64,000 bases of DNA from Planctomycetaceae bacterium (lineage in GTDB: Bacteria > Planctomycetota > Planctomycetia > Planctomycetales > Planctomycetaceae), in NCBI GenBank assembly GCA_900299185.1, contig OMIV01000143.1, forward strand, positions 6,688 to 70,687. Reading direction: 5' to 3'. Below the pieces are notes generated by a model, which did not search any database, was not told the origin of the DNA, and saw only the letters and a program-made list of their open reading frames with translations. Shown piece by piece: positions 2,100 to 44,608 of the stretch (positions are counted from its first letter, which is position 1; the number at the start of each line of letters is the position of its first letter). Position numbers and translations under genes: made by a program.

Positions 2100-3005
2100 A
2101 TGAAGCCGTCACGTTCAACTCACACGAACGTGCTGGCGACAGCGGCCCTTGTGTCGTTGTGCGTTGTCATGCTTACTACTTCTTGGCTTCGAAATCTGCG
2201 TTCCGTCCAGCGTCGTCGTCGAGCACGGCCGTCGTGTTCCGAGCGGCTGGAATCGCGCGAGCTACTCGCCGCAGCCGCCGTGTATGTCGATGGTTTGTGG
2301 ACCGGTCTGCCGGTGGGCACGGACCCCGATGGCAGCGGACCGGCTACGAGCATTGGCGTCGATGCGTTCGCAGACATCGCTTCGGGAATCGCGGCAGTGG
2401 CCGATACGGGGACCGTTAACATCCGACCGGGCACCTATGTTGAAGCCGTGCAGATCTCGAAGCCTCTAACGCTGCAAGGCACCTCTAATCCGTTGTCGGT
2501 CATCATCGCGCCGGGAGCAGGCTCGAACGGCGTGACCATTGCGTCGCCTCACGGAGCCGTCGCGCTGCGGAACTTCACGATCAGCGGCACTCAAACAGCG
2601 GTCGACGTCACGACGAACGACGATGTGCTACTCGACCTGCTGGTGGCTGACGACAACGCCGTCGGAGTGCATGTGGCTCAAGCGGATGACCTCACCATCA
2701 ACGACGGTCGGTACGCGGACATCAGCGTGCGATCCACCGACAGCGTCACGCTGCAAGGTTCGCGAATTAACTCGACCGGCAACATCGACATCGAAACTCA
2801 GAACGCGATCTCGGTCGGCACCACGATCGATGTAGGAGCCAGCACACTTCGATTCATCGCGAACCTCGACGGCTCGGACAACGAAGGCTTCTCGCAAGCC
2901 ATCAACACCACGATCAAGACCACCAACGATTCCATCGATGCCGTGCGCATCGAAGTCAACACGCTGTTGGGTGGCAACGGCGACGCCACGATTGGCCGCA
3001 TTTAA
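2100..3005 (+). CDS. giant exported protein A, N-terminal piece (leader plus parallel beta-helix-like region), ends at an in-frame TAA
   Basis: ATG at 2100 gives MKPSRSTHTNVLATAALVSLCVVMLTTSWLRNLRSVQRRRRARPSCSERLESRELLAAA: a hydrophobic segment, an Arg run and the LExxExRxLL motif. It is followed by pectin-lyase-fold-like sequence (VNIRPGTYVEAVQISKPLTLQG, FTISGTQTAVDV...). TAA at 3003-3005 is in the same frame as ORF 3117..6743. Confidence 0.65.
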   Translation: MKPSRSTHTNVLATAALVSLCVVMLTTSWLRNLRSVQRRRRARPSCSERLESRELLAAAAVYVDGLWTGLPVGTDPDGSGPATSIGVDAFADIASGIAAVADTGTVNIRPGTYVEAVQISKPLTLQGTSNPLSVIIAPGAGSNGVTIASPHGAVALRNFTISGTQTAVDVTTNDDVLLDLLVADDNAVGVHVAQADDLTINDGRYADISVRSTDSVTLQGSRINSTGNIDIETQNAISVGTTIDVGASTLRFIANLDGSDNEGFSQAINTTIKTTNDSIDAVRIEVNTLLGGNGDATIGRI

Positions 3006-3116
3006 ACCGGCACGACCGACGATCCTGCGGGCGGTCGAGTCACCATCATCGCTCGCAACGGAGCGATCGCCGACAGCAACAGCGACGACATCAATCTCAT
3101 TGCCAGCAGCGCGATC

Positions 3117-6100
3117 TTGCTGGCCAGTGCCGGCATCGGCTCGATCGGTGATCGGTTCGAAACGTCGTTGCATCGAGTCACCGCCTCTGGCGGTTACAAC
3201 GGGCTGACGTTGTTCAACGACATTGCTCTGACCATCGACGATCTCGTGCCCAACATCCCTGCCATCGGAGCGTTGTCAGGAGTGGTGCAGGTCTCATCGC
3301 CGCGTTCCATCACCGTCGCTGGCGACATCATCAGCAAACGCGTGCTGCTGAAGTGTGACGAAAATTACGGGTACTCGGAGCTGCGGATTAAGTCGGGCGC
3401 CGCCGTGCGAGCGCTGTCTGGAAACGTCGAACTCGTCAGCGGCGACGACATCGCCTTGGAAGCAGGATCGTTGGTCGAATCGCTCACGGGCGGCGTCTAT
3501 CTCAAAGGCGATGACGGCAACTTCGACTTCGGCGTCGGTACGTCGATCTCCATTGATGGCCTCATCAACTCGGCGATTGGAACGCGAGCCGAAGGCAACA
3601 CCGACAAGGATGTGATCTCGGTTTCCCAGCTCGGCACGGGCGGACTGGTACTCGACGGCCTCGGTCGCGATGACCGTTACGTCGTCACCTACCCAAGCTT
3701 GCCCGCGACATTCGGCAGCACGCTGACCGTGCAAGATTCGGATACCGGCAACGATCAGCTCATAGTGAATGGCTCGGATGACTCCGACGAATTCTTCTTC
3801 ACAACGACTGATCCGCCGACGTCCATCGAGACCGAACAACTGACGCGCGGTAACTCGACCGCCGAGCGCATCATCATCGACGACAGCATCAACGGGCTGA
3901 CGATCAACACCGGCGAAGGCGCGGACATCGTGCATGTGCAGCCGACGTTTCTCTTCCCTGTCACCGTCAATGGCGGCGAGCCTTGCTTCGAGGACATCGG
4001 TTCGGAAAACGGCGACACGCTCGACTTCAACCCGCTCGGCAACGACTTCTCGATCAACGGCAACACGCTGCGAGCCGTCGGTAAGGATGGCATCTATCAA
4101 CCGATCAAGTTCCTCGACATCGAGAATCTGCCGCTGGATCCAGTTGGCACCGGCGAGACGCTGAAGTTCGACTTCAATCACACCAACACTGCGTCTTCGG
4201 TGCAGGAGTCTCCGACCGAGTCCGGCTACATCGGCGTGCGAGCAGGCACGCTGTACTCCGATGGTTTGGGCTATGGCTGGCAGGAGAAAGTCAGCAGCTT
4301 CGAACGAAACGACGGCTTCTATCTGGGACCGCAAAAGTTCTTACTGCAAGACGGTCACTCGCTGGGGCGACAAGCCACCTTCACCATCGATGTGCCCACG
4401 CCGGGCTATTACTCCGTCGGTGCGCTGATGGGGAATCCTTACAGCGACATGGCCGATGTCATGATCAAGAACGGCGACTCCAGCCAAGTGCTCGTCGACC
4501 ACATCACCTCGACCGCCGGGCATTCCACCGACGTTGAATTCGTCATCTATGTGCCGGACACCACGCTCGATCTGCGCTTCATCAATTCGCTGACGAACCC
4601 TGCTCTGCTGGGTCTCAACGCTCTCGAAGTCCGACCTGCCGAGATCCTCACGATGGGCTTGGATTCGTGCGACGCGCGGTACGTTGCCGACGGTGTGACG
4701 ACCGACACCTTGACGCTCTCGCATGCTCCCGCGAATTCCTACATCACCGTGTCGATCGATCTTGGCACGCTGGTGACAACTGACGCCGACCGCGAGATCT
4801 CCGGTGTGCAAGTTCTGACAGATGAAGAAGGCACGGCGACGATCCAAGTGCGGCGTCCGTTTGGCGGAGGCACGGCCACCGTCGAACTCGACGACGTGCG
4901 CGGCCTCGCAACAGGAGTGGCCGCGATCGAGTACGTGCTGCCCCAAGCTCGCAACTTCGACTTCAACCATGTGAATCGAGAATCAGCCGCGATCCCCTCG
5001 CCCACGATGACTCCAGTGGTCTCGCCGTCGAACCCAACCGGCTTCATCGGCGTGCTGCCCACGGACCTTTACACCGAGTCGCGCGGTTATGGTTGGCAGC
5101 TTCAACCTGGCAGCTTTGATGACTACGAGATCCCACAGGATTCTCGCTCGAACCTGCAGCGCGATGGTCACTTCGGTTCGTTCGCCGATGCCTTCACGGT
5201 CGACCTGCCCAACGATGTCTACGACGTGCGTTTGACGATGGGTTACAGCAAAGCGACGGACGCGATGTCCGTGCGAGCCAACGGAATGATGGTCGTTTCG
5301 AACGAAGACACTCTGCCCTTCGAGTACTTCCAAGCGTCGTTCCGCACGGAAGTCAGCAACGGGCAACTGCTGCTGGAGTTTGGTGACGGCGGCTTGATTC
5401 CGAACTGGGTTATCAACGGCTTAGAGATCCGCTCGACGACGATGGTTTCGCCGATCACGTTCACTCAACCGTTGGGCGACGTGGCAGCCAATGGGCGAGA
5501 AGTTCGCACGATTCACGCGACGTCAGACCTAGCTGCCGGTCAGCTCGTGACGGTCTCGACCACGCTGGGGACAGTTATCACCAGCGACGCCGACGCTCGT
5601 TTGGAAGGCGTCCAAGTTCCGGTCGGCACCGGCGGTGCGATCGCCTTTGATGTCCGTGCTCAGCAGCTATCCGGTACGCCGCGAGTTCGCATCGAGTCGA
5701 TCGATGGTCTGCATCAGGGCGAGATCAAGTCGAGCAGTTACCTGCGCTATGTCATCGATCAAGTGCGACGGTTCGACTTCAACCACATCGCGGGCTTCAC
5801 CGTGACTCCTACCGAGCCCGGCTTCATTGGCGTCAATCGGCTCGATACGGACGCCGAGCATGTCGGCTTCGGATTTGTGACGACGCCGAATTCGACCGAC
5901 TTCAGTGTCGCCACGCCGGATGACGCGGGTGATCTGACCAAAATTTCGAAGTCGAGCGTCGCTCCGTACCGCGATGGCATCTCCGGTCACTTCACGCTCG
6001 GCAGCCGCATCTTCCAAGTCGAAGCCAAGCCGGGAGTCGACTACGACATTCGCGTCTTCACCGGGCATCCCTTCCACGATCAAGCCACGCAGTCGAATGC

Positions 6101-6743
6101 CGAAGGAGTCGCCGGTTCCAAGTCCGTCACGACCCAAGCCGGGTTCTTCTCGTCGCTGACGTTCTTGGGCGCACACGACACCAATGGCGACGGCTTCATT
6201 GATATCTCGTTCGGCAACGCCGGTGGCATCTCACCGTTGTGGATCGTCACGGGACTTGATGTTGCGGAATCGTCGACCGGTCTGCCTCCAGCCGCACCGC
6301 TGCTGCCTGAGGCTGGAGATGCGGTGCCAACTGGCACCATGCCGACAACGCTATCGATTACTCAACTGCAAGCCGCTCGCACGATCGCCATCAACGCTTG
6401 GGCAGCAACGGGTCTGAGTTCCGCCGAGCTAGCGCGACTCAATGCGACGACGATCACGATCTCGAATCTGGATGCCGTCGGAGCACTCGGCCTAGCTGGC
6501 TCTCGAACGATCGTGATCGACGACGACGCAGCGGGCTTCGGTTGGCACACGACGACTGACGCGCCGGCTGCGAACCGCTTTGACTTGCTCACCGTCGTCG
6601 CGCACGAGCTTGGTCACATCATCGGTCGCAGCGATCTTGATCCCGGACTGTTTGCGAACGACTTGATGGCCGGATCGCTCGGACTGGGCACGCGACACTC
6701 GCAACTGGCCGCCATCGACGACTTCTTTGCTGGGCAGATTTAG
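3117..6743 (+). CDS. giant exported protein A, main body (beta-helix repeats, 3 lectin-like modules, C-terminal metzincin-motif tail); frame open from 3006, true start unclear
   Basis: 1208 codons; the track start is TTG 3117 and there is no nearby in-frame ATG. Contains the segment FFFTTTDPPTSIETEQLTRG. Three tandem modules of ~265 aa open with FDFNH...GY/FIGV...GYGW (or GFGF) at nt ~4161, ~4950 and ~5766. The tail is DDDAAGFGWHTT...LLTVVAHELGHIIGRSD...DLMAG, with HELGH at 6603-6617. Confidence 0.75.
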   Translation: MLASAGIGSIGDRFETSLHRVTASGGYNGLTLFNDIALTIDDLVPNIPAIGALSGVVQVSSPRSITVAGDIISKRVLLKCDENYGYSELRIKSGAAVRALSGNVELVSGDDIALEAGSLVESLTGGVYLKGDDGNFDFGVGTSISIDGLINSAIGTRAEGNTDKDVISVSQLGTGGLVLDGLGRDDRYVVTYPSLPATFGSTLTVQDSDTGNDQLIVNGSDDSDEFFFTTTDPPTSIETEQLTRGNSTAERIIIDDSINGLTINTGEGADIVHVQPTFLFPVTVNGGEPCFEDIGSENGDTLDFNPLGNDFSINGNTLRAVGKDGIYQPIKFLDIENLPLDPVGTGETLKFDFNHTNTASSVQESPTESGYIGVRAGTLYSDGLGYGWQEKVSSFERNDGFYLGPQKFLLQDGHSLGRQATFTIDVPTPGYYSVGALMGNPYSDMADVMIKNGDSSQVLVDHITSTAGHSTDVEFVIYVPDTTLDLRFINSLTNPALLGLNALEVRPAEILTMGLDSCDARYVADGVTTDTLTLSHAPANSYITVSIDLGTLVTTDADREISGVQVLTDEEGTATIQVRRPFGGGTATVELDDVRGLATGVAAIEYVLPQARNFDFNHVNRESAAIPSPTMTPVVSPSNPTGFIGVLPTDLYTESRGYGWQLQPGSFDDYEIPQDSRSNLQRDGHFGSFADAFTVDLPNDVYDVRLTMGYSKATDAMSVRANGMMVVSNEDTLPFEYFQASFRTEVSNGQLLLEFGDGGLIPNWVINGLEIRSTTMVSPITFTQPLGDVAANGREVRTIHATSDLAAGQLVTVSTTLGTVITSDADARLEGVQVPVGTGGAIAFDVRAQQLSGTPRVRIESIDGLHQGEIKSSSYLRYVIDQVRRFDFNHIAGFTVTPTEPGFIGVNRLDTDAEHVGFGFVTTPNSTDFSVATPDDAGDLTKISKSSVAPYRDGISGHFTLGSRIFQVEAKPGVDYDIRVFTGHPFHDQATQSNAEGVAGSKSVTTQAGFFSSLTFLGAHDTNGDGFIDISFGNAGGISPLWIVTGLDVAESSTGLPPAAPLLPEAGDAVPTGTMPTTLSITQLQAARTIAINAWAATGLSSAELARLNATTITISNLDAVGALGLAGSRTIVIDDDAAGFGWHTTTDAPAANRFDLLTVVAHELGHIIGRSDLDPGLFANDLMAGSLGLGTRHSQLAAIDDFFAGQI

Positions 6744-22468: not shown

Positions 22469-25400
22469 TTAGATCGAATCGATCCAGTCAGCGATGAAGA
22501 TGAAGCCCAAGAGACGCTCGGTTGTTTGACGATTCACGCTGTCATCGGAAGTGGCCCCCAAGATGATCGCGGAGTCCGTCCCAGCGTTTCCGGCGATGAC
22601 GTCGGCTCCGGCATCGCCACGCATCAGGTCGTCACCGGCATTGCCGCGCAACGAATCATTGCCAACTCCACCGATCAGTGTGTCATTTCCACTACCGCCG
22701 TTGATCGAGTCGTTACCGGTGTAACCCGACAGAGCATCGTCGCCATCGTCGCCATTGAGCGTGTCGTTGCCGGCTCCACCATTGAGCGTGTCGTTACCCG
22801 CACCGCCGCTGATGAAGTCGTTGCCGGCTCGGCCCTTGAGCACGTCGGCACCATCCCCGCCATCCAGCGAGTCGTTGCCAGAACCGCCCAAGAGAGTGTC
22901 GTTGCCCACGCCGCCAATGAGCACCGCCGAACCCGAGAAGCTCGTCGCGTCCAACGTGTTGGCACTATCGCCGCCCGTGAGACGGACTCGATCAATCGAA
23001 CTGAGCGTGTCGGTATCGAAGCCAATGAAAGTGCTATCGCTGATCGTGAAATTCCGATCGCCCGAAGCGCTGATAGAGTCCACTCCCGCATCGCCGTTGA
23101 CGATGTCGCCGCCCAAGCCGGAGTCGAGCGAATCGTCTCCGTCGCCACCATTGAGTTGATCGGCTGCCGATCCCGAACGAATGGTGTCGTTCCCCGCGCC
23201 GCCATTGATGGTGACCGAACGAGAATATGCAGTCGTATCAATCGTGTTGGCAGCCGCGCTGCCGTTGATTGTCACGCGTTCGAACGGGCTAACAAGAACT
23301 TGGGCTCCATTGTTGAGGAACATGTCAATTCCATCGCCCGTGACATAAGTCTCGAAGAGCGTGAGCGTCGTCTGAGCTGTAAGACGCAGTACATCGTCTC
23401 CGTCTCCACCGTCGACAACATCGTCACCTGCTCCTGGGATTAAGGCGTCTCGACCAGAGCTACCGACGAGTTGGTCGTTACCGTCGTTGCCAGTCAACGA
23501 GTCATTGCCAGCTTCGCCATTCAGAAAGTCGTTCCCCAAGTCGCCCTGAAGTGAGTCGTTACCCGTTCCACCAAGTAGGTAGTCATCTCCGTCACTGCCC
23601 ATGAGGGAGTCGTTACCTATTTCGCCAACGAGATTGTCATTACCCGCGTTGCCTTGGATCTTGTCGTTGCCATCGCCTCCACGAATGAAGTCACTGTTAT
23701 TGCCACCAATCAACGTATCATTTCCGCCCTGCCCCGAGAGTCCCACAGGGCCCCGGAACTTCGACGCGTCGATGAAATCAGGCCCATCGGAACCAGAGAT
23801 GTTGGCAAATTCGATGCTGCGAAGCGTGTCGCGTCCGAGACCGACGGCCGAGGTATTGGTCAACACGTAGGACGGCGATGTGAAGAATTCGAGCAACTGA
23901 TCTTGGCCGCTGCCGCCAGCCACCAAATCGTCGCCGTAGTTGCTGGTAATGGTGTCGTCGCCGTCGCCCCCTAAGAGGGTGTCGTTCAATGGAGAGCCAA
24001 TTAAGAAGTCGCCTCCGGCACCACCGTTGAGCAACGATCGAGCGGTTTGACTCTGAAGAATGTCTTCGCCTTCGAGACCGAAGAACTGCGTGCTCCTCAG
24101 CGACGTATAAGCTTCGATAATCAGGTCGGTTTCGGCAGTACCTGTGACTGTCAGCGATTCGATGTCTGCGAAGGACATGAAGTGTGAGCGGTCATCGTCG
24201 ATGAAAACTTGATTGCCGAGGAATTCGATTCGACCCGCTCGCGGCAGCGTGTAACCCATGAAGTCGTTGCCCTGATCTCCGTTGATCACATCATCGCCGT
24301 AATAGGCTTCACCCTGACCGAGCGGCACATAGTCAAAAATGTCGTCGCCGGCGCCGCCGCTTTGAGTGTCGTCGCCATCATCGCCTTGCAACACGTCTTG
24401 GCCCGTTCCACCTCGCAGCACGTCGTTGCCAGGTCCACCCAGCAAGACGTCGTCACCACTCACTCCATCGAGAACGTCTTGGCCTACGTCACCGATCAAG
24501 ATGTCGCCACCGCCTCCACCATTCAGGCTGTCATCACCTTCGCCGCCATCCAATACATCGATGCCAGCACCGCCTTGGATGGTGTCATCTCCTCCATTGC
24601 CTTGGATGCCGTCGTTGTTGCGACCACCGATCAGCAGATCGTTGCCGTTGCTACCAGAAATCATGAGTGGTCTGGAGTACGCAGACGCATCGACTAGGCC
24701 GCCAAAGAAAAATCGACTGAGAGACAACGAGGCGTTCTCAATTCCGCTGAAGGTGGAATGGCCAAAAGTGTCAGACGGGAACGGGATCAATCCGCTGTTG
24801 GTAGCGACGTCTTCAAAACTCAAACCCGTAGAGATGACCGTCTGGAAGAACGCCTGGAATTCGGGTTCTCCCAAGAGGTGATCCAGTTCGGGACTTTCTC
24901 CGCGATGATGATTGAGAGCTTCACCCAGCTCGCCCCCGATCGAGTTCGATTTGATGAAGGCACTCAACGCCAAATTCATCTCATCGACACCGGCGGAGCC
25001 CAGCAAACTCTGGGTAGAAATTGTGACAGTGCCGGCTGGCAGGTCACTCGGCAATTGCCCTTCACCGATAATGAACTCGTAGCCCAACGTGACGTCAGAG
25101 TCGGTTAGCGTGATCTGTGAGAAAGATGACTCAACGAGCTGGTCATCACCCAGCCCACCATCCACCGAGTTAATGCCAGAGCCACCACTCAACGAATCGT
25201 TGCCCGCGCTGCCGCTGACGTCGTCATCGTCCTCGTCACCGGAGACCACGTCGTCGCCATCACCGCCATCGAGTAGGTCGTTGCCAGAGCCACCTGAAAG
25301 TAGGTCCGCTCCATCACCACCTTGCAGCAAGTCGTCTCCAAACCCGCCGAAGATGGATTCCGCTGCAGCACTGCCAATGACCGTATCGTTGCCAAACCCG

Positions 25401-28021
25401 GCATCGATTTGTGGCGCACCGTTAAATGCTGGTAGTCCCAGAATTTCGAGCCGATCATCGCCGCCCTGCAGTTGCACGGTGATGGATGAGAGCGACGACA
25501 TTGACGACGACGCAATGCGAACGGTGTGAGGATCCAGTTGCTCGCCGCCAATCGTCTGAATCAACAGCGTGTCTTCGTGGACGATCAGATCTCCGTTATC
25601 TGTCATCGAAATCGTCATCTGGTTGGCAACAGATGCGTATGGCGACTCGTTGACAGAAATCTGGGAGTTAACGGTTACTTCATTTGAGAAGTGCGTCACT
25701 TCGACGGTCACAGTCGGCGTAGAGATGAGATCACCAATACCGAAGCTGGCATCAGCCACAGATCCATTTGGCTCGACATAGACGACAGGCGTCGTGGTTG
25801 CGAACTCGTTGGGTTCGAGCGCAACTCGAACTTGATAGATGCCTCGCCCCTGTTGCTCGAAGGAGTAGTGGCCGTCTTCATCAGTCAGCCGCCACGGCTC
25901 TTCAGCAAGTCCATCGAAGTGACCATCGCCACTGACGGGATTGTTGAGCACGCCGTCGCCGTTGAGGTCGATGAAGACTCCTCGATGAGCAATCGCTGTT
26001 TCGTCTTCATCGCGATAGCTATTGCCGTTTGCGTCTTGGAAAACGGTGCCCGTGATGTCGAAGCGGCGGAAGTTACCAAAGTCCGCGACGGTGATTTCGC
26101 GACCGGGATGCACCGTGACGAGCTGGCTGCGCGTGTCATCTCGCAAGGTGATCAAGATCCGCGCGTAGTTGTTGGTCTCATCCAACTCGGTGAAGTGGTT
26201 CTCGGGATCCACGATCGCTTCGAGCCAGTATTGGCCCGGCTCTAAGCCCGCGACGTTGACCTCTTGGCCCGGCGTGCCTGCTCCATAGATGTCTTCCCAA
26301 CCGACTGAAATTTCTTGCTCGGTGTCGCAGCCCAGTCCACTGCCGTCTGGGTCAGCGTTGGGCAACGGCGGAGTCGTCGGGTACTGAGCAACGTCAATCA
26401 AGCAGAAGCTGGTCTTCTCGCCGCCTCGCACTTGCTCGCCCAACTCCGGCACACCGTCGCTGTTCGCATCGGGTGTTGCGGCAAAGAGCCGGTACTCGGC
26501 GAACTCGTTGAAGTGGATGTGATTGTGCTCGGGATGAAACTCGAAGAGCCCCGCGAGCCGTTCGGTGTAGCCACCTTGATCGTCATAGATCCGCTGATAG
26601 ACGTTCTGCGTGCCGTCGTGATTGTCTTCACCACCCACGATTCGCAGCGGTCCATTTCCAACGTTGGGAGTGCCCTGACTGAAGCGGATGACGTCGCCGT
26701 CGCGATAGACATCGCGCAGGCCATTAACGGGATCAACGACCAGATCCGGCAAGAGTGCGGCAGGGTCATCAGCCGTGCCAACCGGAGGCTGAACGACCTC
26801 GAAGGAACCCGCTTGAATGACGGGGTTATCACCCACCAGCGGCACTGAGTTGGCTGGCGGCGCAGTGATCTCTTCACCTTCAGGAGTGACTTCGCGAACG
26901 AGGTACTCACCGGCCGGTACGTCGTTGAAAACGTAGTAGCCCGGATGCACGACGATGTAGTCATCGAACAGTTCTTCTTGGGTGAAGGTCACAGTCGTTC
27001 GCAGCACTTCTTCAGTCAGTGGATCGAGCAGCTCGATCGTTACTCCGTTCTCGCCCTCTTCGCTGAAGTCGCGGAATCCGTTGCCGTTGCCGTCGAGGAA
27101 GACAAAGCCGCTGATGGAACCAGGCAACTCATGCAATCCGAAGTTGGCTGTTGCAGCAGACGATCCACCATCAACGGCAACAACTTGCACGTTCGAGTTG
27201 GTCGGCTGAGTGACTTCTAAGCCTGGAAGAGTTACGACACCGACCGCATACGTACCGCTCTCTAGTTCGGAGAAGTGATAGTTGCCTTCTGAGTCAGTGA
27301 GCTGAAGCGGTTCGGCGTTAGGAGTCTTGGTTGTGATCGCCGAGATCGACCAGTTGAGCAACGTGCCCTCATCTCCTTGAGCGCCGTCGACGATTTCCAA
27401 AGTCCAAGGTCCATCGACGCTGAGCCCGTCAAATACTGACAAGCTCTCGATCGGACGGAAGGAGCCGTTGAACGGTGCATTGCCCTCGGCAATCCCTAGA
27501 TCCGCTTCGTCATCGAATGTTGTGACTTGATAGTTGTCGCCACCACTACCGAGGTTCTCCGACAGCGTTACGCGGATCCCCTGCGGGCCGATGAGCGTCA
27601 ACGTTAAGTCGCCATCGAAGGTGTGAGTGAGCTCAACATTGACGTTGAGGTCGATAATGTTGCCACCTTCAAATCCGATGGAAAGAGGGCGAATGATCGT
27701 GATGCCTGATGTAATCGTGCCTACTTCTGGAATCGCCATCGGCAATCCGTCACCCGGATAAACTTCGCGCGGTGACTCGTAGGTGCCGTTGTTATTGAGG
27801 TCCAAGAACACGCCCACGCCCGCCAGTCCGGTGTCTCCAACGTCGCGAGCACCATTGCCGTTGAGGTCCTCGAAGACCGTGCCCGAGACAGCACCAGTCC
27901 CCGACAAAAGCTGCCGCGCTTCGAGCTGCTCGAGTCGCCGAGGATCGAGTCGCGAACGGTTCCGACGAGTGACCGACTTACCGATCGTCTTGATCCAACG
28001 ACGCCATGAATTGTGCAACAT
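22469..28021 (-). CDS. giant RTX (hemolysin-type Ca-binding repeat) protein with SdrD-B/Cna-B-like domains, a P-domain and a lysyl-oxidase-like domain
   Basis: 1850 aa. The N-terminus is Arg-rich with [12 protein letters not shown]. SdrD-B-like units include [31 protein letters not shown] and [32 protein letters not shown]. From about residue 852 onward (nt ~22502-25468) there are many GGxGxDxLx nonapeptides, e.g. [24 protein letters not shown] and [24 protein letters not shown]. Confidence 0.9.
26144..26764 (-). other. lysyl oxidase (LOX)-like copper amine oxidase domain inside the RTX protein (residues ~420-626)
   Basis: Motif-by-motif match to the animal LOX catalytic domain, recalled from memory. 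LPDLVVDP vs [24 protein letters not shown] vs [36 protein letters not shown] vs [21 protein letters not shown] (Cu ligands H499/H501/H503, nt 26513-26527). [11 protein letters not shown] vs EGHKASFCLED (K536). WEDIYGAG...[28 protein letters not shown] vs CYDTYGAD...[28 protein letters not shown] (Y579). Confidence 0.8.
27332..27739 (-). other. proprotein-convertase P-domain-like module (residues ~95-230) without an adjacent subtilisin domain
   Basis: [50 protein letters not shown]...[43 protein letters not shown] follows the P-domain pattern (H.y.GDL...L.sP.Gt...L...F.D.a...g.f.P...L..F.G....G.W.L.v.D....D.G.L..W.l). Confidence 0.65.
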
Positions 28022-32573: not shown

Positions 32574-33251
32574 ATGAAACTTCGCAACTGGCTGGCCCGC
32601 GCTGTTCGTCCGGTAGTCTCTTCCCGCCTCAACAACGCCACCCAATCGCGTCGCTCTACATACCTATCGCGCCGCCTCACCGCCGCCACTCTCGAAACTC
32701 TGGAAGATCGCGCCTTGCTGTCGTCGATCTCGGCCAGCCTCGTGAACGGCGACTTAACAATCAGCGATTCAGACGCGACCGGTAAGAACAACTTCCTCTC
32801 GGTCAGTGTGAGCGGCTCGAACCTCGTTGTTTCAGACTCCTTTGAAACATTTATTGCGGCTCCGTCCGGTGGGGTGCTCAGCAATGGAAACACGACGTTG
32901 ACGATTCCGCTGGCCTCAGTGACCGGCACATTGACCATTGATGGGGGCAAGGGCACAGACAACATCTCGATCAACGCGCTCAATGGTTTGCTGGGCGGAC
33001 TGTCGGTCAATGGTGGCGAAGGCGATGACTCCGTCACGTTTAATGGAGACATCACATTCGCGACGAACGCCAGTCTCGATGTTGATCTTCAGAACGATGC
33101 TGCCACACCCGGAGTGGACCAAGTCACCGTCAATAACGATGCGAATCTGGTGCTATCTGGCACCGGGCCGGCGACGATGAAGGTCAGCAAGAGCATTCAA
33201 TTTAATCCGGGGTCGAGCCTCATCACGGCAAACGGCAACCTCACACTCTAA
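32574..33251 (+). CDS. giant exported protein B, N-terminal piece (leader plus beta-helix-like region), ends at an in-frame TAA
   Basis: ATG at 32574 gives MKLRNWLARAVRPVVSSRLNNATQSRRSTYLSRRLTAATLETLEDRALLSS. It continues with LTISDSDATGKNNFLSVSVSGSNLVVSD...GGKGTDNISINALNG...NGGEGDDSVTFNGD. TAA at 33249-33251 is in the same frame as ORF 33321..39281. Confidence 0.65.
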   Translation: MKLRNWLARAVRPVVSSRLNNATQSRRSTYLSRRLTAATLETLEDRALLSSISASLVNGDLTISDSDATGKNNFLSVSVSGSNLVVSDSFETFIAAPSGGVLSNGNTTLTIPLASVTGTLTIDGGKGTDNISINALNGLLGGLSVNGGEGDDSVTFNGDITFATNASLDVDLQNDAATPGVDQVTVNNDANLVLSGTGPATMKVSKSIQFNPGSSLITANGNLTL

Positions 33252-33320
33252 GCCAATCAACAAGCTGTCGCGTCGACCGGTGAGTTCGGCGGCATTCGAC
33301 TTGATAACTCCACGATCGCG

Positions 33321-36300
33321 GTGACGGGCACGGGCACGTTGTCGATGGCCGGCACGGGTGGCAGTGTGGGACGTGGAACGCTCGGAATTGAGGTACGCGG
33401 CGGCAGCACTGTTTCAGGCGGGACGACGGGAACGATGACGCTCGTCGGGCACGGTGGAGCGACAACCGATACCGACTCGCAAGGTATTCATGTGCGCGAC
33501 GGAATCGTCACTTCGCTCGGCGCGAACGTCAGTCTCACTGGCTTTGGTGGCAATGCAGGTTCGGGAACCGCGTTGGGGGTGCTCGTGAATCGGAACTCGA
33601 CAGAGACGAAAGTCACGGCCGGCGGTTCGGGCAATGTGACCGTGATCGGCACGGGTGGCTCAGGCAGCGGCAATTTGAATGTTGGAGTCGCAGTTGCTGG
33701 AGGCATTATTACATCCAGTGGCGGCAATGTGACCGTCACTGGCATAGGCAGTGGGAACGCGTCCGGGAAATTGAATATCGGTGTCGGTGTTGTGGGCGGG
33801 ACCATCGAAGCAACGGGCTCGGGCACGCTGACGGTGACGGGAACCGGCGGGGCGGGAGCAGCGGCTCACGGAATCGACTTCAACATCACCGGCGCATTTG
33901 GAACTCCACCCGCGAATATCTCGACTGTGAATGGCACTCTCAGCGTGATTGGCACTCCAGGAGCGGGCGATGGTTCGTTCGGCATCAACTTGTGGAAGAA
34001 CGGCACGATTTCAACCACGGGTACTGGCAATGCATCGCTCAAGACGGACAGCCTCGAAATCGACGTTTCAGACACACCAGGCACGATCAACGTCGGTGCC
34101 AATGCGATCAAGATCGTCCCAGCGACCAATGGAGTGACGCTCGACCTATCTTCAGCCGAATATGCTCGCATCTCGGCGGGCAGAATTCTCTACAACGGCA
34201 CAATCGACGGTAAGACGCCGACGTCGAATCCGACAGTCGATCTTTCCGTGAGCACCAATGCAGCCTCTGAATCCGGCCAGACAAAAGTGACCGTGACAGC
34301 AACGGCTTCTGCGGCGGTCAGTGGCGATCAAACCGTGACGGTGGGAGTCAGTGGCAGCGGAATTACATCGAACGATTACACGTTGTCGGGGACGACGATC
34401 ACCATCCCCAGCGGCAAGCAATCGGGCAGTGTGACATTCACGGTGCAAGACGACTCAGAGAACGAAGGCTCCGAGACCGCAACGATCTCGATCTCGAATC
34501 CGTCATCAGGCGTAACGCTCGGTAAGAGCAAGTCTCAAAACGTCGTCATCACAGACAACGATGGTCCGACCTCGGTCGATATACCGCAAACCGGAACCGG
34601 GCCGGTCACGATGAAGTTGGTTGGCGGTAACATCGTCATTACTCAAGACGGCAAGACGTTGGCGCAGATCCCAGCGTCCGATCAGCCCCTTCAAATCAAC
34701 GGCACTGCGGCTAACGATGACGTCTTCATCCTCGACCTCTCTGGCGGCGATCCGACTCCAACAGGCGGGCTGATTTTCAACGGCGGAGCAGGCGGCAATG
34801 ACGTGTTGCGAATTGTCGGCACAGGCCAAGACGCCACGTATTCGCCGGATAGTTTCGTCACCGGCAATGGCGTCATCGAGGTCAACGGTAAGACGATCAC
34901 GTTCGTCGGGCTCGAACCCGTCGACATGTTCGGCTTCGGTACTGTCACACTCAATCTGCCTAACGGAGACGACATCCTCACGGTGACGAATGATGTCGAC
35001 TTCACATTCGGCGGAATGAACCCTGCCATTCGAGTTGCTGGTACGTCCGGCGGTGTGGCTATTGAGACGGTTGCCATCTGGAGCGGTTCCACGCTCGTCA
35101 TCGATACCACTCTGAACTCAGATGGCGACGATAGCATCACGATCAACGGCGCCGATCTGACCGCCGCCAACATCTCGAATCTGACGATCAATACGGGTTC
35201 CGGATCGGATGCCATCGCCATCAATGGTGATGTGACTCTCGACGGCAACTTGGCCATGACCACCGCGGCAGGAGCGATCACTCAAGCAGGCTCAGCCGTC
35301 AGTGTCGGCGGGACGACCACCATCAATACCGGGTCGGCGGACATTGCACTTACCAGCGCAACGAATGACTTCGTTGGCCCTGTCACTCTGACCGGCGCGA
35401 ACATTTCGATCGCCGATGCCAACGACATGACGCTGACCAGCGTCACCGCGTCAGGCGACGTCTTGGTAACAACCGACGACGCACTCACATTGATCGGCAC
35501 GATCAACGCGGGTGATGGCACCATCACGCTCAACGTGAATACGGACGGAGCAGGGGCCGACGACTTCACCATGCTGCCTGGCTCAGTCATCACGACGTTG
35601 AATAGCACCTCGGACGCGGTTGTCATCACGGTTAATAACTTGGGTGGTGGCACAGGCGACGCCATCATCCAACTCATCACTACGGCCAAAGACTGCGGCC
35701 CGACGCTTGGTCGAGTCACCATTGATGCCAACGGCGGAGCAGTTGTCGACGGCAACGCGGGATCGGTGAACGTGGTCTCTGGAGCCACGATTCTGCTCGG
35801 CCAAGAAGGTGTCGGTTCGGCGATCGATACGTTCGATACCGAAGTCGGCATGACCGAAGGCGTCGGTGGTTCGGGCGGCTTCTATGTGCTGAACACCGGC
35901 AATCTGACAGTTGGTGGATTGAGCGCCACGATCGGCATCTCGACCACCACCGGAGACATCGATCTCCGAACGACGGGCTCGCTGACTGTTACGGAAGATG
36001 TCGACTCGACCGGAGCAACCGGCAACATCTTGTTGAGTGCCATCGAGAGCGCTGGATTCGGCAGCGACCTGACGATCAACGACAATCTCTCGATCAGCTC
36101 GCCAGGCGGCAGCATTCAATTGCTGGGCGGCGACAACGTCACGATTGGAACGGGCGGCTCAATCTCAGCACCGACCGGCAGCATCACCATTAGCGGAGAC
36201 AGCGGCGATCTCGATCCCGATGGAGCAAAACTGACAGTTGCCGCGCAGCTTGTGTCTGGCTTGGGAACCGCGATCAACGGCGGCAACGACAACGACAAGT

Positions 36301-39281
36301 ACTCGCTGACTTACCCAACGGGCGTCTTGAATTCGGGAACGGTGACGATCGGTGATACCGGCGGAACTGACGCAGCGACGGTCAGTGGATCCAGCGCCGC
36401 AGATACCTTGTTCTTTACCACGGCCGAGCCTCCAACCACGGCCACGACAGAACAAGTGACGCGCGGCGACGCCGTCTCTGAGCCCATCATTCTGCCGAGC
36501 GGCTTGGAGTCATTTTGGTTCCGCGGTGGAGATGGCGCAGACACCTTCACCGTGCAGCCATCGAAGTTGTTCCCCGTCACTGTGGATGGTGGTAACCCCG
36601 GCGTGGCTCTTGGCGACACGCTCGTGCTCGACACCTTCAGCAACACGTTCTCGTTCGATGGCAAGACCGTCTTGGTGAATGGCGGTACGCCAGCCTTCAA
36701 AGGCGTCACGATCATCAACATTGAAGACATGCCGCTGGAACCAGTCTCAAACGGGCCTGTGCAGCGCTACGACTTCAACGCTCGCACGGTCGTTGGCGGA
36801 GTTTATGTCTCCACGCCGACTCAAACCGGATACACCGGAGTGCAAGCCGACACCCTCTACTCGCAAGGTCTCGGCTACGGTTGGAATGAAGTGCTCGTGC
36901 CGGTGCTTAATGGCACCAACAGCGGTCCCGCTGGAGATCTCGTCAACGACGGGGTGATGTATTCGACGGGTACTTCGGAAGACTGGCCGCTCTTCAAAGC
37001 CGACATCGGCAACGGTTGGGTGCAAGTCACGGTGAACTATGGCCATCCCGAGAAGAACATGGATGGCATGCGAATCGTGAATGTCGACACCAACGAGTAT
37101 GTCGCGACCGGACTATCGACCGACCTGGGCGAATCCGCATCGACGACCTTCTTCGTGCTCGTCACCGATGGCTCGGTCGACCTGAGATTCGAAGACGTCA
37201 CCAACAGTCGCATGATGACGATCAATGGCATCGATCTGCGTCCGGCCAATCTCTTCACCGTCGGCTTCTCGAATGCTCCGACCGGTGCGCTCAATGCTGA
37301 CGGCACCTCGGTCGACCTATTCGACATTGTGGGAGGCCCGATCAACGGCCTCTTTACGGTGTCGGTCACAGCCGGGACGATCGTCAGCAGCGATGCGGAC
37401 TTGAGGATCGATGGCTTCCAAGTGGCGACAGATGGCACCGGAGCCGGCACGATCCAAATCCAACGACCGAGCGCCGTGAGCACGTCACTCGTCGGGATGA
37501 AGACTCCGACCGGCGAAGACATTGGTTGCGTCGCGATCGACTACGCACGAGTCAACAGCCAGCTCTTCGACTTCAACACCACCGAGTCAGCCACCGAGCC
37601 GGGTTACACGCCGGTGCTGACTACGAACGCCTACTCCAGTGCCACGGGATACGGCTGGCTGTCTCAGCCCAACCATTACAGCATGCTGACGCCGCTGGTT
37701 GATCCGCATGCCGACCTGCTCAACGACGGTCATCGCGGCAGCACCGCTGACACGTTCCGAGTGGATCTCGATAACGGCGAGTACGAAGTTCACGTCTACA
37801 TGGGCGACAACGGCGATCATGTTGGTGTAAGCCTCGCCTTGAACGGCACGACGGTACTCAGCAACCAACCGCTGAGCCGAACGAAGATCTTCGATGCCAT
37901 CTACACCGTGACCGTGTCGTCCGAGCAACTCGATCTGACGTTCTCGGCGAACGACAAGTTCTTCAACGATCCGTACTGGGTCGTAAATGCCATCGAGATT
38001 CGTCCGCTGAGCACAGTAACTCCGATCTACATCGAGCCTGTAGGAGATGTTCCAGCCGACGGTTCGACGATCACCACAGTTCAAGCCACGTCTTTGCTGG
38101 CTGCTGGCGCCCAAGTGACGGTCACGTCGACATTGGGAACGATTACTTCGGCGGACGTGAACCCGAATCTCAACGGGATTCAGGTGACGGTGGGAGGTGG
38201 TGGAGCGATCTCGTTCGACATTCAATCGCCCACGCTCGCTGGAGTTCCACAAGTTGAATGGAAGGCCGTTGACGGGTCCGCTCATGGCATCGTGTATGAC
38301 GAGCATTGCTTCGAGTTTGTGATCTTGCCGGTTCGCCGGCTCGACTTTAATCGTGGTTTCAGCAGCAGCACGATGTCAGCCACTGCCGCTGGATTCTTCG
38401 GAGTTCCAACCAACAGCAACTATCAAACAGTGGGCTGGGGCTGGTCGTCACAACCTGGCGACTTCACGACTCCGGTTACGCCCAGTGGAGTGACGACCTC
38501 GGCTCTCTACTCTGACGGACATCACATCGGTGCGATGTTCGATCCACGCACGCTCTATGTCCAAGCCGGCAGCGGCACGACTTATGACGTCCGAGCCTAT
38601 CTCGGCAGCTTCGGAGCAGGTCACGATCCGGTCTATGTAACCGCCGAAGGTACTACTCAAGTTGCCACGATCACTGATTGGAACGAGTTCACGATCGTGA
38701 CGATCTTGGGAGCCACTGACATCAACAACGACGGCTTCATCGGCATCACGTTTGAAGATCGAACGCACTACAACCTCAACGACATCATTCGTCCGTTTGG
38801 TGGCCGCAATGGTTGGGCCATCGTTGGCCTCGACATTGCCGACCAATCCGTCGGTTTGCCGGTCGCCGCGCCGTTACTTGCAGCCGTCAGCCAATCCACA
38901 GCCGCCAAGCAACTCTCGCTCAGCGACGTCAACACATTATTGCCGTTTGCTAAGTCCATAATCGCCGCCACGAACCTCAGTTCCGCGCAACAAATAGCAC
39001 TCGCTGCCGCGAAGATTGAGATCTCTGATCTCAGCCAACTGGGAGCGTTGGGACTGACCGAAGGGCTGCTCATCACCCTTGATGACGATGGAGCTGGTTT
39101 TGGTTGGAACACGAGCATCGACGCCGTTGCGTCCGACGAATACGACCTGCTAACCGTGCTGGCTCATGAGCTGTCTCATGCCATCGGTTGCGACCATTCC
39201 GACTCCGGCTTGATGGCTCCAGTGCTTGATCTCGGAGTGCGATTGGTCGACTTGGACGGCGTATTTGCCTCGGGCTTCTAA
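33321..39281 (+). CDS. giant exported protein B, main body (Gly/Thr-rich beta-helix repeats, Calx-beta, 3 lectin-like modules, C-terminal metzincin motif); frame open from 33252
   Basis: 1986 codons. The track start is GTG 33321 and the first in-frame ATG is 33345. Repeats such as GTGGSGSGNLNVGVAVAGGIITSSGGNVTVTGIGSG. Calx-beta-like segment at ~34233-34563 (ITIPSGKQSGSVTFTVQDDSENEGSETATISISN...NVVITDND). Segment LFFTTAEPPTTATTEQVTRG. Three modules open with YDFN/FDFN/LDFN at ~36762, ~37561 and ~38335. The tail is DDDGAGFGWNT...LLTVLAHELSHAIGCDHSDSGLMAP, with HELSH at 39164-39178. Confidence 0.8.
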   Translation: MTGTGTLSMAGTGGSVGRGTLGIEVRGGSTVSGGTTGTMTLVGHGGATTDTDSQGIHVRDGIVTSLGANVSLTGFGGNAGSGTALGVLVNRNSTETKVTAGGSGNVTVIGTGGSGSGNLNVGVAVAGGIITSSGGNVTVTGIGSGNASGKLNIGVGVVGGTIEATGSGTLTVTGTGGAGAAAHGIDFNITGAFGTPPANISTVNGTLSVIGTPGAGDGSFGINLWKNGTISTTGTGNASLKTDSLEIDVSDTPGTINVGANAIKIVPATNGVTLDLSSAEYARISAGRILYNGTIDGKTPTSNPTVDLSVSTNAASESGQTKVTVTATASAAVSGDQTVTVGVSGSGITSNDYTLSGTTITIPSGKQSGSVTFTVQDDSENEGSETATISISNPSSGVTLGKSKSQNVVITDNDGPTSVDIPQTGTGPVTMKLVGGNIVITQDGKTLAQIPASDQPLQINGTAANDDVFILDLSGGDPTPTGGLIFNGGAGGNDVLRIVGTGQDATYSPDSFVTGNGVIEVNGKTITFVGLEPVDMFGFGTVTLNLPNGDDILTVTNDVDFTFGGMNPAIRVAGTSGGVAIETVAIWSGSTLVIDTTLNSDGDDSITINGADLTAANISNLTINTGSGSDAIAINGDVTLDGNLAMTTAAGAITQAGSAVSVGGTTTINTGSADIALTSATNDFVGPVTLTGANISIADANDMTLTSVTASGDVLVTTDDALTLIGTINAGDGTITLNVNTDGAGADDFTMLPGSVITTLNSTSDAVVITVNNLGGGTGDAIIQLITTAKDCGPTLGRVTIDANGGAVVDGNAGSVNVVSGATILLGQEGVGSAIDTFDTEVGMTEGVGGSGGFYVLNTGNLTVGGLSATIGISTTTGDIDLRTTGSLTVTEDVDSTGATGNILLSAIESAGFGSDLTINDNLSISSPGGSIQLLGGDNVTIGTGGSISAPTGSITISGDSGDLDPDGAKLTVAAQLVSGLGTAINGGNDNDKYSLTYPTGVLNSGTVTIGDTGGTDAATVSGSSAADTLFFTTAEPPTTATTEQVTRGDAVSEPIILPSGLESFWFRGGDGADTFTVQPSKLFPVTVDGGNPGVALGDTLVLDTFSNTFSFDGKTVLVNGGTPAFKGVTIINIEDMPLEPVSNGPVQRYDFNARTVVGGVYVSTPTQTGYTGVQADTLYSQGLGYGWNEVLVPVLNGTNSGPAGDLVNDGVMYSTGTSEDWPLFKADIGNGWVQVTVNYGHPEKNMDGMRIVNVDTNEYVATGLSTDLGESASTTFFVLVTDGSVDLRFEDVTNSRMMTINGIDLRPANLFTVGFSNAPTGALNADGTSVDLFDIVGGPINGLFTVSVTAGTIVSSDADLRIDGFQVATDGTGAGTIQIQRPSAVSTSLVGMKTPTGEDIGCVAIDYARVNSQLFDFNTTESATEPGYTPVLTTNAYSSATGYGWLSQPNHYSMLTPLVDPHADLLNDGHRGSTADTFRVDLDNGEYEVHVYMGDNGDHVGVSLALNGTTVLSNQPLSRTKIFDAIYTVTVSSEQLDLTFSANDKFFNDPYWVVNAIEIRPLSTVTPIYIEPVGDVPADGSTITTVQATSLLAAGAQVTVTSTLGTITSADVNPNLNGIQVTVGGGGAISFDIQSPTLAGVPQVEWKAVDGSAHGIVYDEHCFEFVILPVRRLDFNRGFSSSTMSATAAGFFGVPTNSNYQTVGWGWSSQPGDFTTPVTPSGVTTSALYSDGHHIGAMFDPRTLYVQAGSGTTYDVRAYLGSFGAGHDPVYVTAEGTTQVATITDWNEFTIVTILGATDINNDGFIGITFEDRTHYNLNDIIRPFGGRNGWAIVGLDIADQSVGLPVAAPLLAAVSQSTAAKQLSLSDVNTLLPFAKSIIAATNLSSAQQIALAAAKIEISDLSQLGALGLTEGLLITLDDDGAGFGWNTSIDAVASDEYDLLTVLAHELSHAIGCDHSDSGLMAPVLDLGVRLVDLDGVFASGF

Positions 39282-42144: not shown

Positions 42145-42658
42145 TTCTAAGTCGTGGGTCCTGCATGTCGTTCAGCTTTTATGGTTATGTCGGCAACGGA
42201 TTGATCGACACCACCCAAGCGACTTAAACGACGGTACTGCTCGGTGAAGCCATATTGCCCGGCTACAGCTATGTCCGCCTTCGTGCCGTGCGAATCATGC
42301 AAATCGCGAATCGGGAGTTGTTGAAGCCTTATGCTGCTCGCGGCGAGGAATGAGGCTTTCCGTTGCTACATTCGCCAGAGCGTGGCGAAGCTGGACCTGA
42401 GTGTGACACGACTACGTTCTGGCGAACGTAGCGACCTCAATCGTGGCCCCGTAAAGAATACGACTTTCCTCAACATCAGAACGAAGTTGATCGTCCGCCG
42501 CAGGTCACTACGGGCGACGAACGTCGTGATGCGACAGCTTGCAACTTGCTCTTGGCACTTTTCTGCGCGTGGCACTGTCGAGACTCGGCCTCCGAATGCG
42601 TTACATAGGAGAGACCGAGCTACGTCGAACGACAGCCCTCACTTCGAAAGCCACCGCG

Positions 42659-44608
42659 ATGAAAGTCTGGTTCAACAAAGTCCATGAAAGCCGGCGGCAA
42701 AGCATCGACACCGAGCACCCCGAGATCTCGATTGGTCGCGATCGTGGCAACGTGCTCGTGCTGCAAAGCCCAATGGTCTCTAAACGGCAAGCGATAGTGC
42801 GACGGGACGACGGGCAACTCGTTCTGCAGAACATTGGCATCAATAGCTGCATGGTCGGCGATACCGAAGTCATGGGCGGGGATTCGGTGCAGTTTGCAGC
42901 CGGCGAAACCGTCCGCATTGGCCCGTTCACTCTGACCTTCGAGTCCGATGAAGCGGCACCAATCAGTCGAGCTGAGTTGGAAGCACACCTGCGTTCGATC
43001 ATGGCTGACCTGGAATTGAAGGTGCATCGCAAGTTGCTCGCGCGGTTCGATCTGTACGAACTCGAGACCAATCAACTCGGCGATACGAACAGCATCCTGT
43101 TACTCGAACGCCATATCGAAGACGTCTGCCGCGAACTCAATTTGTTTGGCCCTGAGAACGACGCGCTCCTGGAAGAAGTCATTGGGCTCATCCTGCGCGA
43201 CCTCATGATCAATCAGCTCATCTTGGAGAGCGATCGCAATCAGCACGATTCGCTCGCGAAGCTGACATACAACGAATACGACGTTCCCCAGACGCTCGTG
43301 CCAGAGCGCGAGACCGAACTGCAAAGCTTGGTGCTCTTCGTCCGCGAGCGCATTCAATTGGATGAGCAGCCCGATCTCAGCTCGCAAATTCAGAGAGTGG
43401 AATACAAGTTCGGCGACGTCTTCCCGCTGGTCCGTCCGCACCTGCATAAGGAGCTGCGGCGTTATGTCATTCTGCGGCGATTGAAGAAGGATCTCAAAGA
43501 CACGGTCTTCGGTTTTGGACCGCTGCAAGACTTATTACGTGCCCCGACGATCTCTGAAATAATGGTCGTGAAGAGCGATCAGATTTACGTCGAACGCGAA
43601 GGCGTGCTCGAACTCTCTGGACGTCGCTTCCTGTCAGACAAAGTCACTGAGTCGATCATCGAACGCATCGTCGCCGGAGTCGGTCGCCGTATCGATAAGA
43701 GTCAGCCGCTCGTCGATGCACGCTTGCCTGATGGCTCGCGCGTGAATGCGATCATCCCGCCGCTGGCAACGCGCGGCCCGTGCTTGACCATTCGAAAGTT
43801 TCCGGCGTTCCGCTTCACGATGGACGATCTCATTGAGCGTCGCAGCATCACCTCGGCAGCCGCGATGTTCTTGCGAGCGTGCGTTGTCGATAAGCAAAAC
43901 ATCCTCGTCAGCGGTGGTACGGGCACCGGTAAGACGACGATGCTGAATGTCTTGTCGAGCTTCATTCCGCATCGCGAACGCGTCGTTACGATCGAAGACA
44001 CGACGGAATTGCAATTACACCAAGATCACGTGGTGACTTTGGAAGCCAAGCATCGCAACGTCGAAGGCACTGGCGAATACACCATTCGAGATCTCGTGAA
44101 GAACGCACTGCGAATGCGGCCTGATCGCATCATCGTCGGCGAGTGTCGCGGCGGTGAGGCTCTCGACATGTTGCAGGCCATGAATACCGGTCACGACGGC
44201 TCGATGACTACCATTCACGCCAATAGTACCGAAGATGTTTTGAAGCGGCTGGAAGTCCTCGTCTTGATGGCCGTTGATCTGCCAGTGGTCTCGATTCAAC
44301 GCCAGACAGCATCGGCGATCGACATCGTCGTGCAGATTGAACGCAAGCCGGGCGGTCGCCGCATCGTGACTCAAATCTCAGAGATCGCGGGCTTCGATCA
44401 AGACCGCAATGAACTCATCGTGCACGACATCTTCAACGAGCGCAATGGTTCGTCGCTGCAGCCGACCGGCTATATGCCGACGTTCGTTGAATCCCTGATG
44501 GAGAAGGGCTTGCTCAAACTGGAATTCCTCTACGGTCAGACCGAACGGTTCGTGCCAGAAGAAGAGGCTCAGCAACCAGTTCGCATGCCCGCGCGACAGC
44601 GAACTTGA
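42659..44608 (+). CDS. FHA-domain fused CpaF/TadA-family (VirB11-like) secretion ATPase
   Basis: ATG at 42659 (MKVWFNKVH). FHA-like N-terminus ([46 protein letters not shown]...RIGPFTLTF, nt ~42659-42943). Walker A is [10 protein letters not shown] (~43912-43938). CpaF blocks: [39 protein letters not shown]. Confidence 0.88.

Follow-up and report, generated by a model that had tools for sequence, protein, structure and literature searches.

How do the largest proteins of a planctomycete cell reach the outside? This question, which extends to several other phyla and has been open since a motif shared by such proteins was described in 2004, is raised by a 64,000-nucleotide stretch of Planctomycetaceae bacterium DNA (assembly GCA_900299185.1, contig OMIV01000143.1, positions 6,688 to 70,687 of the forward strand), hereafter the window, in which three giant genes begin with the same Arg-rich leader. 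The largest exported proteins include 1-MDa surface fibres and the giants of the Chlorochromatium symbiosis. The segment examined here is an N-terminal leader of the known LEPR-XLL or 'Planctomycete extracellular' kind, in a lineage-specific three-part form. Since the leader itself is already catalogued (PF07595, NF012209), the present instance is not a discovery; what is added here is the three-part anatomy, the substitution for Sec signal peptides of homologues in other phyla, and the link to a conserved gene cluster. The leader somewhat probably acts as an address tag for a machine composed of a short SecA, a PqqD-M50-adaptor fusion and a TolC-like channel, and not as a Sec or Tat signal. 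The three-part leader, the Sec substitution and a cluster offering a plausible receptor, peptidase, motor and channel make the export question directly testable.

A three-part leader on very large proteins

An initial annotation of the window had assigned a common motif to the three giants, and its coordinates proved exact in all of them. In the RTX/lysyl-oxidase (RTX/LOX) protein, translation places the core motif at residues 29-40 (27902-27937, minus strand); protein A carries ..RRRRARPSCSERLESRELLAAA, with the core ERLESRELLAA at 2241-2273, and in protein B the core is LETLEDRALLSS at 32691-32726. The motif was described by Studholme, Fuerst and Bateman in 2004, who, in the part quoted in PMC8567305, gave the consensus RRLxxExLExRxLLA and considered it a putative new N-terminal export signal. 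The E, L, E, R and LL of this consensus, catalogued as PF07595, align in all three window leaders, and in an alignment of 42 leaders of this genome (A1) the Arg is invariant while E, L, E and L are each conserved in at least 90%.

The Pfam family PF07595 (Planc_extracel, 'Planctomycete extracellular') aligns to residues 29-42 of the RTX/LOX protein, with 17.5 bits when the leader is scanned alone and 11.5 bits in the full protein, and thus does not pass the gathering threshold of 25.5 bits; the scores of proteins B and A are 11.4 and 7.8 bits, respectively. No open reading frame (ORF) of the whole genome passes this threshold, the best reaching 19.5 bits. The NCBIfam model NF012209 ('LEPR-8K', LEPR-XLL domain) covers the same LE-x-R-x-LL core, found at the N-terminus of very long proteins of several phyla, but the three window leaders scanned alone gave no match to it at E<=10 (curated cut-off, 17 bits), and only 2-3 ORFs of the genome, on contigs C114, C217 and C178, pass its cut-off. 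At the position where NF012209 has P, the local consensus has D/S/T/A. With PF07595 the local leader shares the core, the N-terminal position, the Planctomycetota hosts and the predicted surface or giant carriers, but this 20-residue model leaves out the two upstream parts described below. The window copies, which fall below both curated cut-offs, are most fittingly regarded as members of an established kind that current models under-detect.

The anatomy of the leader was taken from an alignment of 51 leaders from this genome, of which 46 start with ATG. The first part is a Trp box, Met-x4-Trp-[LIV]-x2-[LIV], in which the Trp stands exactly at residue 6 in 29 of the 51 leaders. It is followed by a basic linker of about 25 residues, in which Arg accounts for 25.7% (6.9% genome-wide), Ser for 12.4% and Asp plus Glu for 2.2%, and then by the core motif LE.LE.R.LL[SAT], the median distance from Met to E-x-R being 39 residues. 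In the RTX/LOX protein the leader comprises residues 1-41 (27899..28021, minus strand), divided into the Trp box (M-x4-W-R-x-W-I.., residues 1-13, 27983..28021), the Arg/Ser-rich linker (residues 14-28, 27938..27982) and the core, and the first SdrD-B-like domain begins about 5 residues after it. The leader of protein B, MKLRNWLARAV...RRLTAATLETLEDRALLSSIS, lies at 32574..32732 on the plus strand, and the protein starts with the ATG at 32574 (MKLRNWLARAV...RRLTAATLETLEDRALLSS). That of protein A, MLTTSWLRNLRSVQRRRRARPSCSERLESRELLAAAAV, lies at 2169..2282, also on the plus strand. Given the position of the Trp in 29/51 leaders, protein A most likely starts at the ATG at 2169 (MLTTSWLRNL) and not at the ATG at 2100, and the hydrophobic stretch encoded upstream would therefore not be part of this protein.

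The orthologues of the RTX/LOX protein, which are 49-80% identical to it over their N-terminal 420 residues, keep the leader, and four of them (P0005, P0011, P0013, P0024) also have the Trp box. This box is a lineage-specific element, present in some genomes of the same family (G070, G270) and absent from other families.

The assembly was scanned whole (7.87 Mb, 383 contigs). A strict regular expression of the motif gave 6 matches in the six-frame translation of the genome and its reversed form gave 0, while an iterated hidden Markov model (HMM) converged on 53 ORFs, or 56 with a filter for the basic upstream stretch. It had been proposed that the motif be checked for restriction to N-termini and for enrichment in giant or extracellular proteins, and both were observed. 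In genes that encode 500 aa or more, all 38 matches are confined to the initial 150 residues (18% expected), and no internal match in this genome joins the motif and the basic upstream stretch at an HMM score of at least 4 bits. The leader is found on 0.2% of proteins below 300 aa, on 16% of those of 1,500-2,500 aa and on 27% of those above 2,500 aa, and the carriers contain extracytoplasmic domains, namely RTX, SdrD-B, cadherin/Big, FG-GAP, trypsin, PATR, GH18 and Calx-beta (Pfam). The leader is thus a protein-level element, limited to N-termini, on about 56 mostly very large proteins.

A nucleotide-level repeat, a regulatory RNA element or a chance low-complexity resemblance would leave the recurrence itself as its only support, and such an origin has practically no likelihood. 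In the leaders of this genome, the invariant Arg is written with 6 codons and the Leu positions with 5-6, a synonymous diversity that refutes a DNA or RNA repeat and therefore indicates selection on the protein; in addition, the reversed motif is without matches and the motif is kept among orthologues at the protein identities given above.

The statement, in the initial annotation, that similar motifs recur on very large Planctomycetota proteins was borne out, since a profile built from the leaders of this genome has multiple matches in many families of the phylum. In Tuwongella immobilis, 52 proteins carry the motif, including 8 of the 10 longest, and 20 of the 52 were detected by proteomics, 8 of them only in the fraction soluble in sodium dodecyl sulphate (SDS) (PMC8567305). 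It was also observed that the public gene calls P0022, P0027, P0007 and P0018 begin inside the leader (e.g., MLEARLVLSS.., MLELLECRLVLNG..), so that database entries hold a shortened leader that domain models fail to recognise. Since gene callers frequently choose a start within the leader, and most copies of this lineage escape both curated models, the surface proteomes of such genomes are under-annotated.

Comparison with known export signals

The initial annotation considered the leader to be neither a Sec nor a lipoprotein signal, as it saw no hydrophobic h-region before the motif in the RTX protein and protein B, and this view is upheld by the hydropathy of the 51 leaders. The highest Kyte-Doolittle mean over 11 residues within a leader is 0.69 in the median and never above 1.52, so that the leader is without an h-region. 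In this way, the test for a classical Sec signal (signal peptidase I) failed for want of an h-region of about 7-15 residues, and that for a lipoprotein signal failed for the same reason and because the leaders of RTX/LOX and B have no Cys for a lipobox. The Tat test (S/T-R-R-x-F-L-K followed by an h-region) also failed, the leader having RR followed by LEQLE and no h-region, unlike the two Tat-type signals of the window to which it had been contrasted, that of the DUF1501 protein (..FNRRTFL plus a hydrophobic stretch, at 9213) and that of the Rieske-like protein (MNRRSALAF.., at 62311). A hydrophobic region hidden downstream of the motif was considered and rejected, because domain 1 of RTX/LOX begins about 5 residues after LLSG and because the Gemmataceae variant, LExRxxP (P0004), continues with polar residues.

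Double-glycine leaders of peptidase-containing ATP-binding cassette (ABC) transporters (PCATs) are similar in being N-terminal, amphipathic and without a hydrophobic core, and in coupling one-step export with leader removal. However, the Gly-Gly site is absent here, no GG being found in the three window leaders, and the motor would be SecA-like and not an ABC protein. A Pfam scan of the candidate ABC exporters of the genome, covering the whole of C231 and C287 and residues 1-300 of C91, detected neither a C39 nor a C39-like domain; the long exporters on C231 and C287 carry N-terminal domains without an assigned family. The extended signal peptide region (ESPR) of autotransporters and TpsA proteins (PF13018) is likewise an N-terminal extension of very large secreted proteins with a conserved Trp near residues 6-10, but behind the ESPR comes a full signal peptide of the classical type, whereas no hydrophobic region follows here.

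What stands in the place of the leader in other phyla was seen in the N-terminal homologues of the RTX/LOX protein. Those of Acidobacteria, Ignavibacteriales and Actinokineospora have ordinary hydrophobic Sec signal peptides at the leader position, and the homologue of Ignavibacteriales has a sorting domain of the type IX secretion system and that of Actinokineospora an LPXTG-like end, while variants of the leader are found in the planctomycete homologues, which come from Gemmataceae, Isosphaera, Phycisphaerales and Tepidisphaeraceae. The leader thus takes the place held by a classical Sec signal peptide in homologues of other phyla. Altogether, the suggestion that the motif is a candidate signal for export, sorting or processing is supported, for a motif that was already in the family databases.

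This same substitution is one of the points in favour of the leader being an unconventional general Sec signal, accepted by the housekeeping SecA and SecYEG, with the short SecA clusters described below being accessory or unrelated. Such a role, which is possible although unlikely, would also agree with the approximately 10-13 uncharged residues that follow the invariant Arg, whose median Kyte-Doolittle mean is 1.6. The lack of a hydrophobic region within the leader, the folded domain that begins in RTX/LOX so shortly after the motif and the polar sequence behind the Gemmataceae variant all speak against it; the distribution of the gene cluster, which bears on it in both directions, is taken up below.

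A candidate machine and its association with the leader

A check for co-occurrence with a secretion machinery, proposed in the initial annotation, points to a cluster of a short SecA, an M50 peptidase fused to a membrane fusion protein (MFP, or adaptor) and TolC. On contig C156 (8275-18772), genes for a TolC-like protein, a 631-aa SecA paralogue, a 637-aa adaptor and a 722-aa Peptidase_M50-HlyD fusion all run in one direction. The short SecA keeps the DEAD, preprotein cross-linking and P-loop domains, and misses the C-terminal scaffold and wing. In total, the genome has three genes for the M50-adaptor fusion and, in addition to its housekeeping SecA, three short paralogues of SecA; further copies of the fusion or the short secA lie at C14:2224-4494, C173:7403-9634, C357:29241-31229 and C179:5701-7662, and the C156 copy is the only complete cluster with a TolC-like gene. 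No description of a SecA/M50/HlyD/TolC cluster was found in a literature search.

The catalytic motifs HExxH and NxxPxxxxDG are invariant in 16/16 M50-MFP sequences, and the M50 part is most similar to the intramembrane metalloprotease that removes the leader of daptides (1e-46). The first ~125 residues of the fusion match PqqD, the leader-recognition fold of ribosomally synthesized and post-translationally modified peptides (RiPPs), in 9/14 homologues, with a best E value of 2e-8. To judge from these sequences, RiPP leader systems such as those of the daptide protease (NF041824) and lasso-peptide B1 share with the candidate machine a PqqD-like domain and an M50 peptidase, and in both cases the leader is a short, helix-prone recognition motif. 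The cargo here, however, would be proteins of 1,000-13,000 aa and not a small peptide, and the candidate machine would add a SecA-like ATPase, adaptors and TolC.

When one genome was scanned for each species, 568 relatives came up, in Planctomycetota, Verrucomicrobiota, Nitrospira, Alpha-, Beta- and Gammaproteobacteria, Desulfomicrobium and others. Of 20 Planctomycetota loci, 14 keep the gene order adaptor, M50 fusion, short SecA, and 4 have a leader gene right beside the cluster. Outside this phylum, 12 of 14 genomes with the cluster have LEPR-XLL leaders above the NF012209 cut-off, nearly all on ORFs of 1,500-13,000 aa, compared with 0/14 named controls. In all four genomes inspected directly for a giant adjacent to the cluster, a leader giant ends just upstream of the MFP > M50-MFP > SecA operon. 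In Dyella sp. OK004 it is the only leader giant of the genome and in Histidinibacterium lentulum one of two; in a Desulfomicrobium metagenome-assembled genome (MAG) it is probably the only one, the contig match being inferred and not confirmed; and in a Nitrospira MAG three leader ORFs stand in tandem toward the operon, the last ending just upstream. An earlier regular-expression scan for leaders in 80 cross-phylum loci, which gave 10 matches with 6.3 expected from an internal-hit control, was discarded and superseded by the curated NF012209 model over whole genomes and by this direct inspection. A similar configuration has been reported for Chlorobium chlorochromatii, whose giants Cag_663 and Cag_665 have LEPRxLL N-termini and reach the partner cell, and in which a horizontally acquired extra secA is co-expressed with these giants, with a TolC gene between them (2026 preprint).

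Within Planctomycetota, the M50-MFP fusion is present in 29/54 leader-rich genomes and in 51/247 others (odds ratio (OR) 4.5, p 2e-6; OR 2.8, p 0.005 without the own family), values that are uncorrected for phylogeny. The short SecA was also considered as a phylum-wide marker and rejected, as it is not cleanly separable from the housekeeping SecA; because the E-values of both are similar, only SecA copy number and ORF length are usable.

Taken together with the domain content of the cluster, a route can be proposed in which a dedicated machine that spans the envelope, with a layout resembling that of type I secretion, would recognise the leader in the cytoplasm; the genome would encode three sets of this machine. 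The N-terminal PqqD-like domain of the fusion would bind the leader, the short SecA paralogue would provide ATP-driven threading, and the M50 intramembrane metalloprotease of the fusion would cut the leader off near LL[SAT]. The fusion would also supply a periplasmic adaptor, and a second adaptor, with a long cytoplasmic N-terminus, would complete the conduit together with the TolC-like channel. That the leader tags a distinct, undescribed pathway, moving unfolded proteins of 1,000-13,000 residues out N-terminus first and clipping the leader, has about even chances of being right. In such a pathway, three machines would serve about 56 or more substrates, and the Trp box might sort substrates among them.

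Several observations weigh against the leader being the tag of this machine. The binding, cleavage and transport of the leader by the machine are a proposal derived from predicted domains, no inner-membrane channel was recognised for the machine, and the PqqD match is absent from this genome's own copy when it is scanned alone. Moreover, none of the three machine copies of this genome has a leader gene beside it, and the 4 genes on each side of the 56 leader genes show no enriched family, so that there is no operon-linked partner here. The window leaders score under the curated cut-offs of both family models, and the co-occurrence statistics take no account of phylogeny. About 34 leader proteins combine C-terminal RTX repeats with a conserved tail at the C-terminus, a pairing for which the model gives no reason. 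Finally, the fusion is absent from 25/54 leader-rich planctomycete genomes, even by profile search, and most of these 25 have a single SecA. The leader therefore cannot depend on the machine everywhere, and these genomes either use another route, possibly general Sec, or have a functionally different variant of the motif.

These genomes, nearly half of the leader-rich planctomycetes, also favour a general Sec role of the leader. In addition, the short SecA is a close SecA paralogue that keeps the preprotein-binding domain, and recognition of the leader could thus be shared by both. Against this, the leaders outside Planctomycetota co-occur with the dedicated cluster and adjoin it.

A further alternative is that the motif is a processing site or propeptide, such as a stretch around E-x-R recognised by a protease, and takes no part in membrane translocation. 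The invariant Arg and nearly invariant Glu would suit such a site, as would the many carriers in the phylum that are subtilisin/kexin-type proteins with P-domains. However, it leaves unexplained the passage through the membrane of proteins that have no other signal, and also the strict N-terminal position, the linkage to SecA-like and TolC genes and the replacement of Sec peptides; it is regarded as very improbable.

RTX repeats, C-terminal tails and the surroundings of the giant genes

Address tag of a short-SecA machine or not, the leader is closely associated with RTX repeats, being present on 34/44 RTX proteins of the genome (OR 251, p 8e-49). The RTX proteins without it are mostly fragments or missed variants, and almost every RTX-repeat protein of this genome with an intact N-terminus has it. 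Most of the leader-bearing RTX proteins end with related tails such as ..EI[DN]E.F.[LF]....W[IL]D.[IL]* or ..D.LDT[VI]...L..L*. The RTX/LOX gene of the window (22469..28021, minus strand), encoding 1,850 aa with HemolysinCabind, SdrD_B, P_proprotein and Lysyl_oxidase domains (Pfam), has 21 HemolysinCabind stretches and a conserved extreme C-terminal tail, which with the stop codon occupies 22469..22540 on the same strand and is kept in orthologues as ..FIFIADWID.[ILV]*. Proteins A and B are without RTX repeats.

This association suggests that a C-terminal type I-like signal, composed of the RTX repeats and the tail, could perform the export, while the N-terminal leader would retain, tether or quality-control the protein, as the retention module of LapA-type adhesins. 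Since the leader-RTX-tail association is unexplained by the model of an address tag, this alternative stays alive, although as a distinctly unlikely one. The acidic-hydrophobic tails are conserved among orthologues, a cluster of ~10 Arg would resist leaving the cytoplasm, and the motif proteins of T. immobilis go with the SDS-soluble envelope fraction. Nevertheless, RTX repeats are missing from many leader proteins of this genome and of related genera, the leader replaces the Sec signal peptides of homologues, and the candidate ABC exporters that were scanned lack a C39 or C39-like domain. A canonical type I system was not found either: the best score in the genome was 247 bits for the type I ABC model (TIGR01842; cut-off 510) and 57 bits for the HlyD-type adaptor (TIGR01843; cut-off 209), and canonical type I secretion, with PrtD-type ABC and HlyD models so far under their cut-offs, was rejected.

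The type I RTX adhesins LapA, MpIBP and SiiE are similar to the proteins studied here in their giant size, repetitive make-up, surface location, RTX repeats at the C-terminus and TolC-dependent architecture. They differ in using a C-terminal signal with an ABC/HlyD pair, of which none is canonical here, and in having a folded domain as N-terminal retention module, in contrast to the basic leader of 40-55 residues. On contig C260 (11494-16871), genes for a MacA-like adaptor and a MacB-type ABC transporter immediately precede that of a 428-aa RTX protein whose N-terminus is leader-like, a single case that may be a coincidence.

The two other giant genes of the window are both on the plus strand. 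Gene A (2169..6743), whose C-terminal part has a galactose-binding-like domain, and gene B (32574..39281), with Calx-beta and DUF5649 domains, each have one in-frame TAA, at 3003-3005 and 33249-33251, respectively, after which the protein sequence clearly goes on in the same frame. Several further leader genes of the assembly are also split into consecutive ORFs. Proteins A and B and the product of C178:74274-84902 share a C-terminal module with HExxH (..LLTV[VL]AHELGH.IG...D.GLM..L..G.R....[IL]D.[FV]FA...*), encoded in the window at 6560-6743 and 39100-39281, both on the plus strand, and related endings (..DTGLM..L.PG.R.LP....D.FF..*) were seen on the leader proteins L021 and L022 of a genome of the same family.

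A fourth leader gene lies on the same contig ~16 kb past the end of the window (C143:86552-89158); its leader reads MLLTSWLKRL...FTRLEDRMVLSV, and the gene, encoding 829+ aa, is cut by the contig end. Within the window, a fusion of a T2SSE/CpaF-type ATPase and an FHA domain is encoded at 42539-44608 (plus strand); it lies 3 kb downstream of giant gene B, and its neighbours include no further genes for pili or secretion. Lastly, remnants of Nextera adaptors, in translated form (..LSLIHI, ..VSYTHLRAHE, ..DVYKRQ..), were observed at the ends of contigs C214, C200 and C107, and one was found inside an ORF on C38. Their location at contig ends and within this ORF suggests that reads went untrimmed and that the assembly includes one chimeric join or more.

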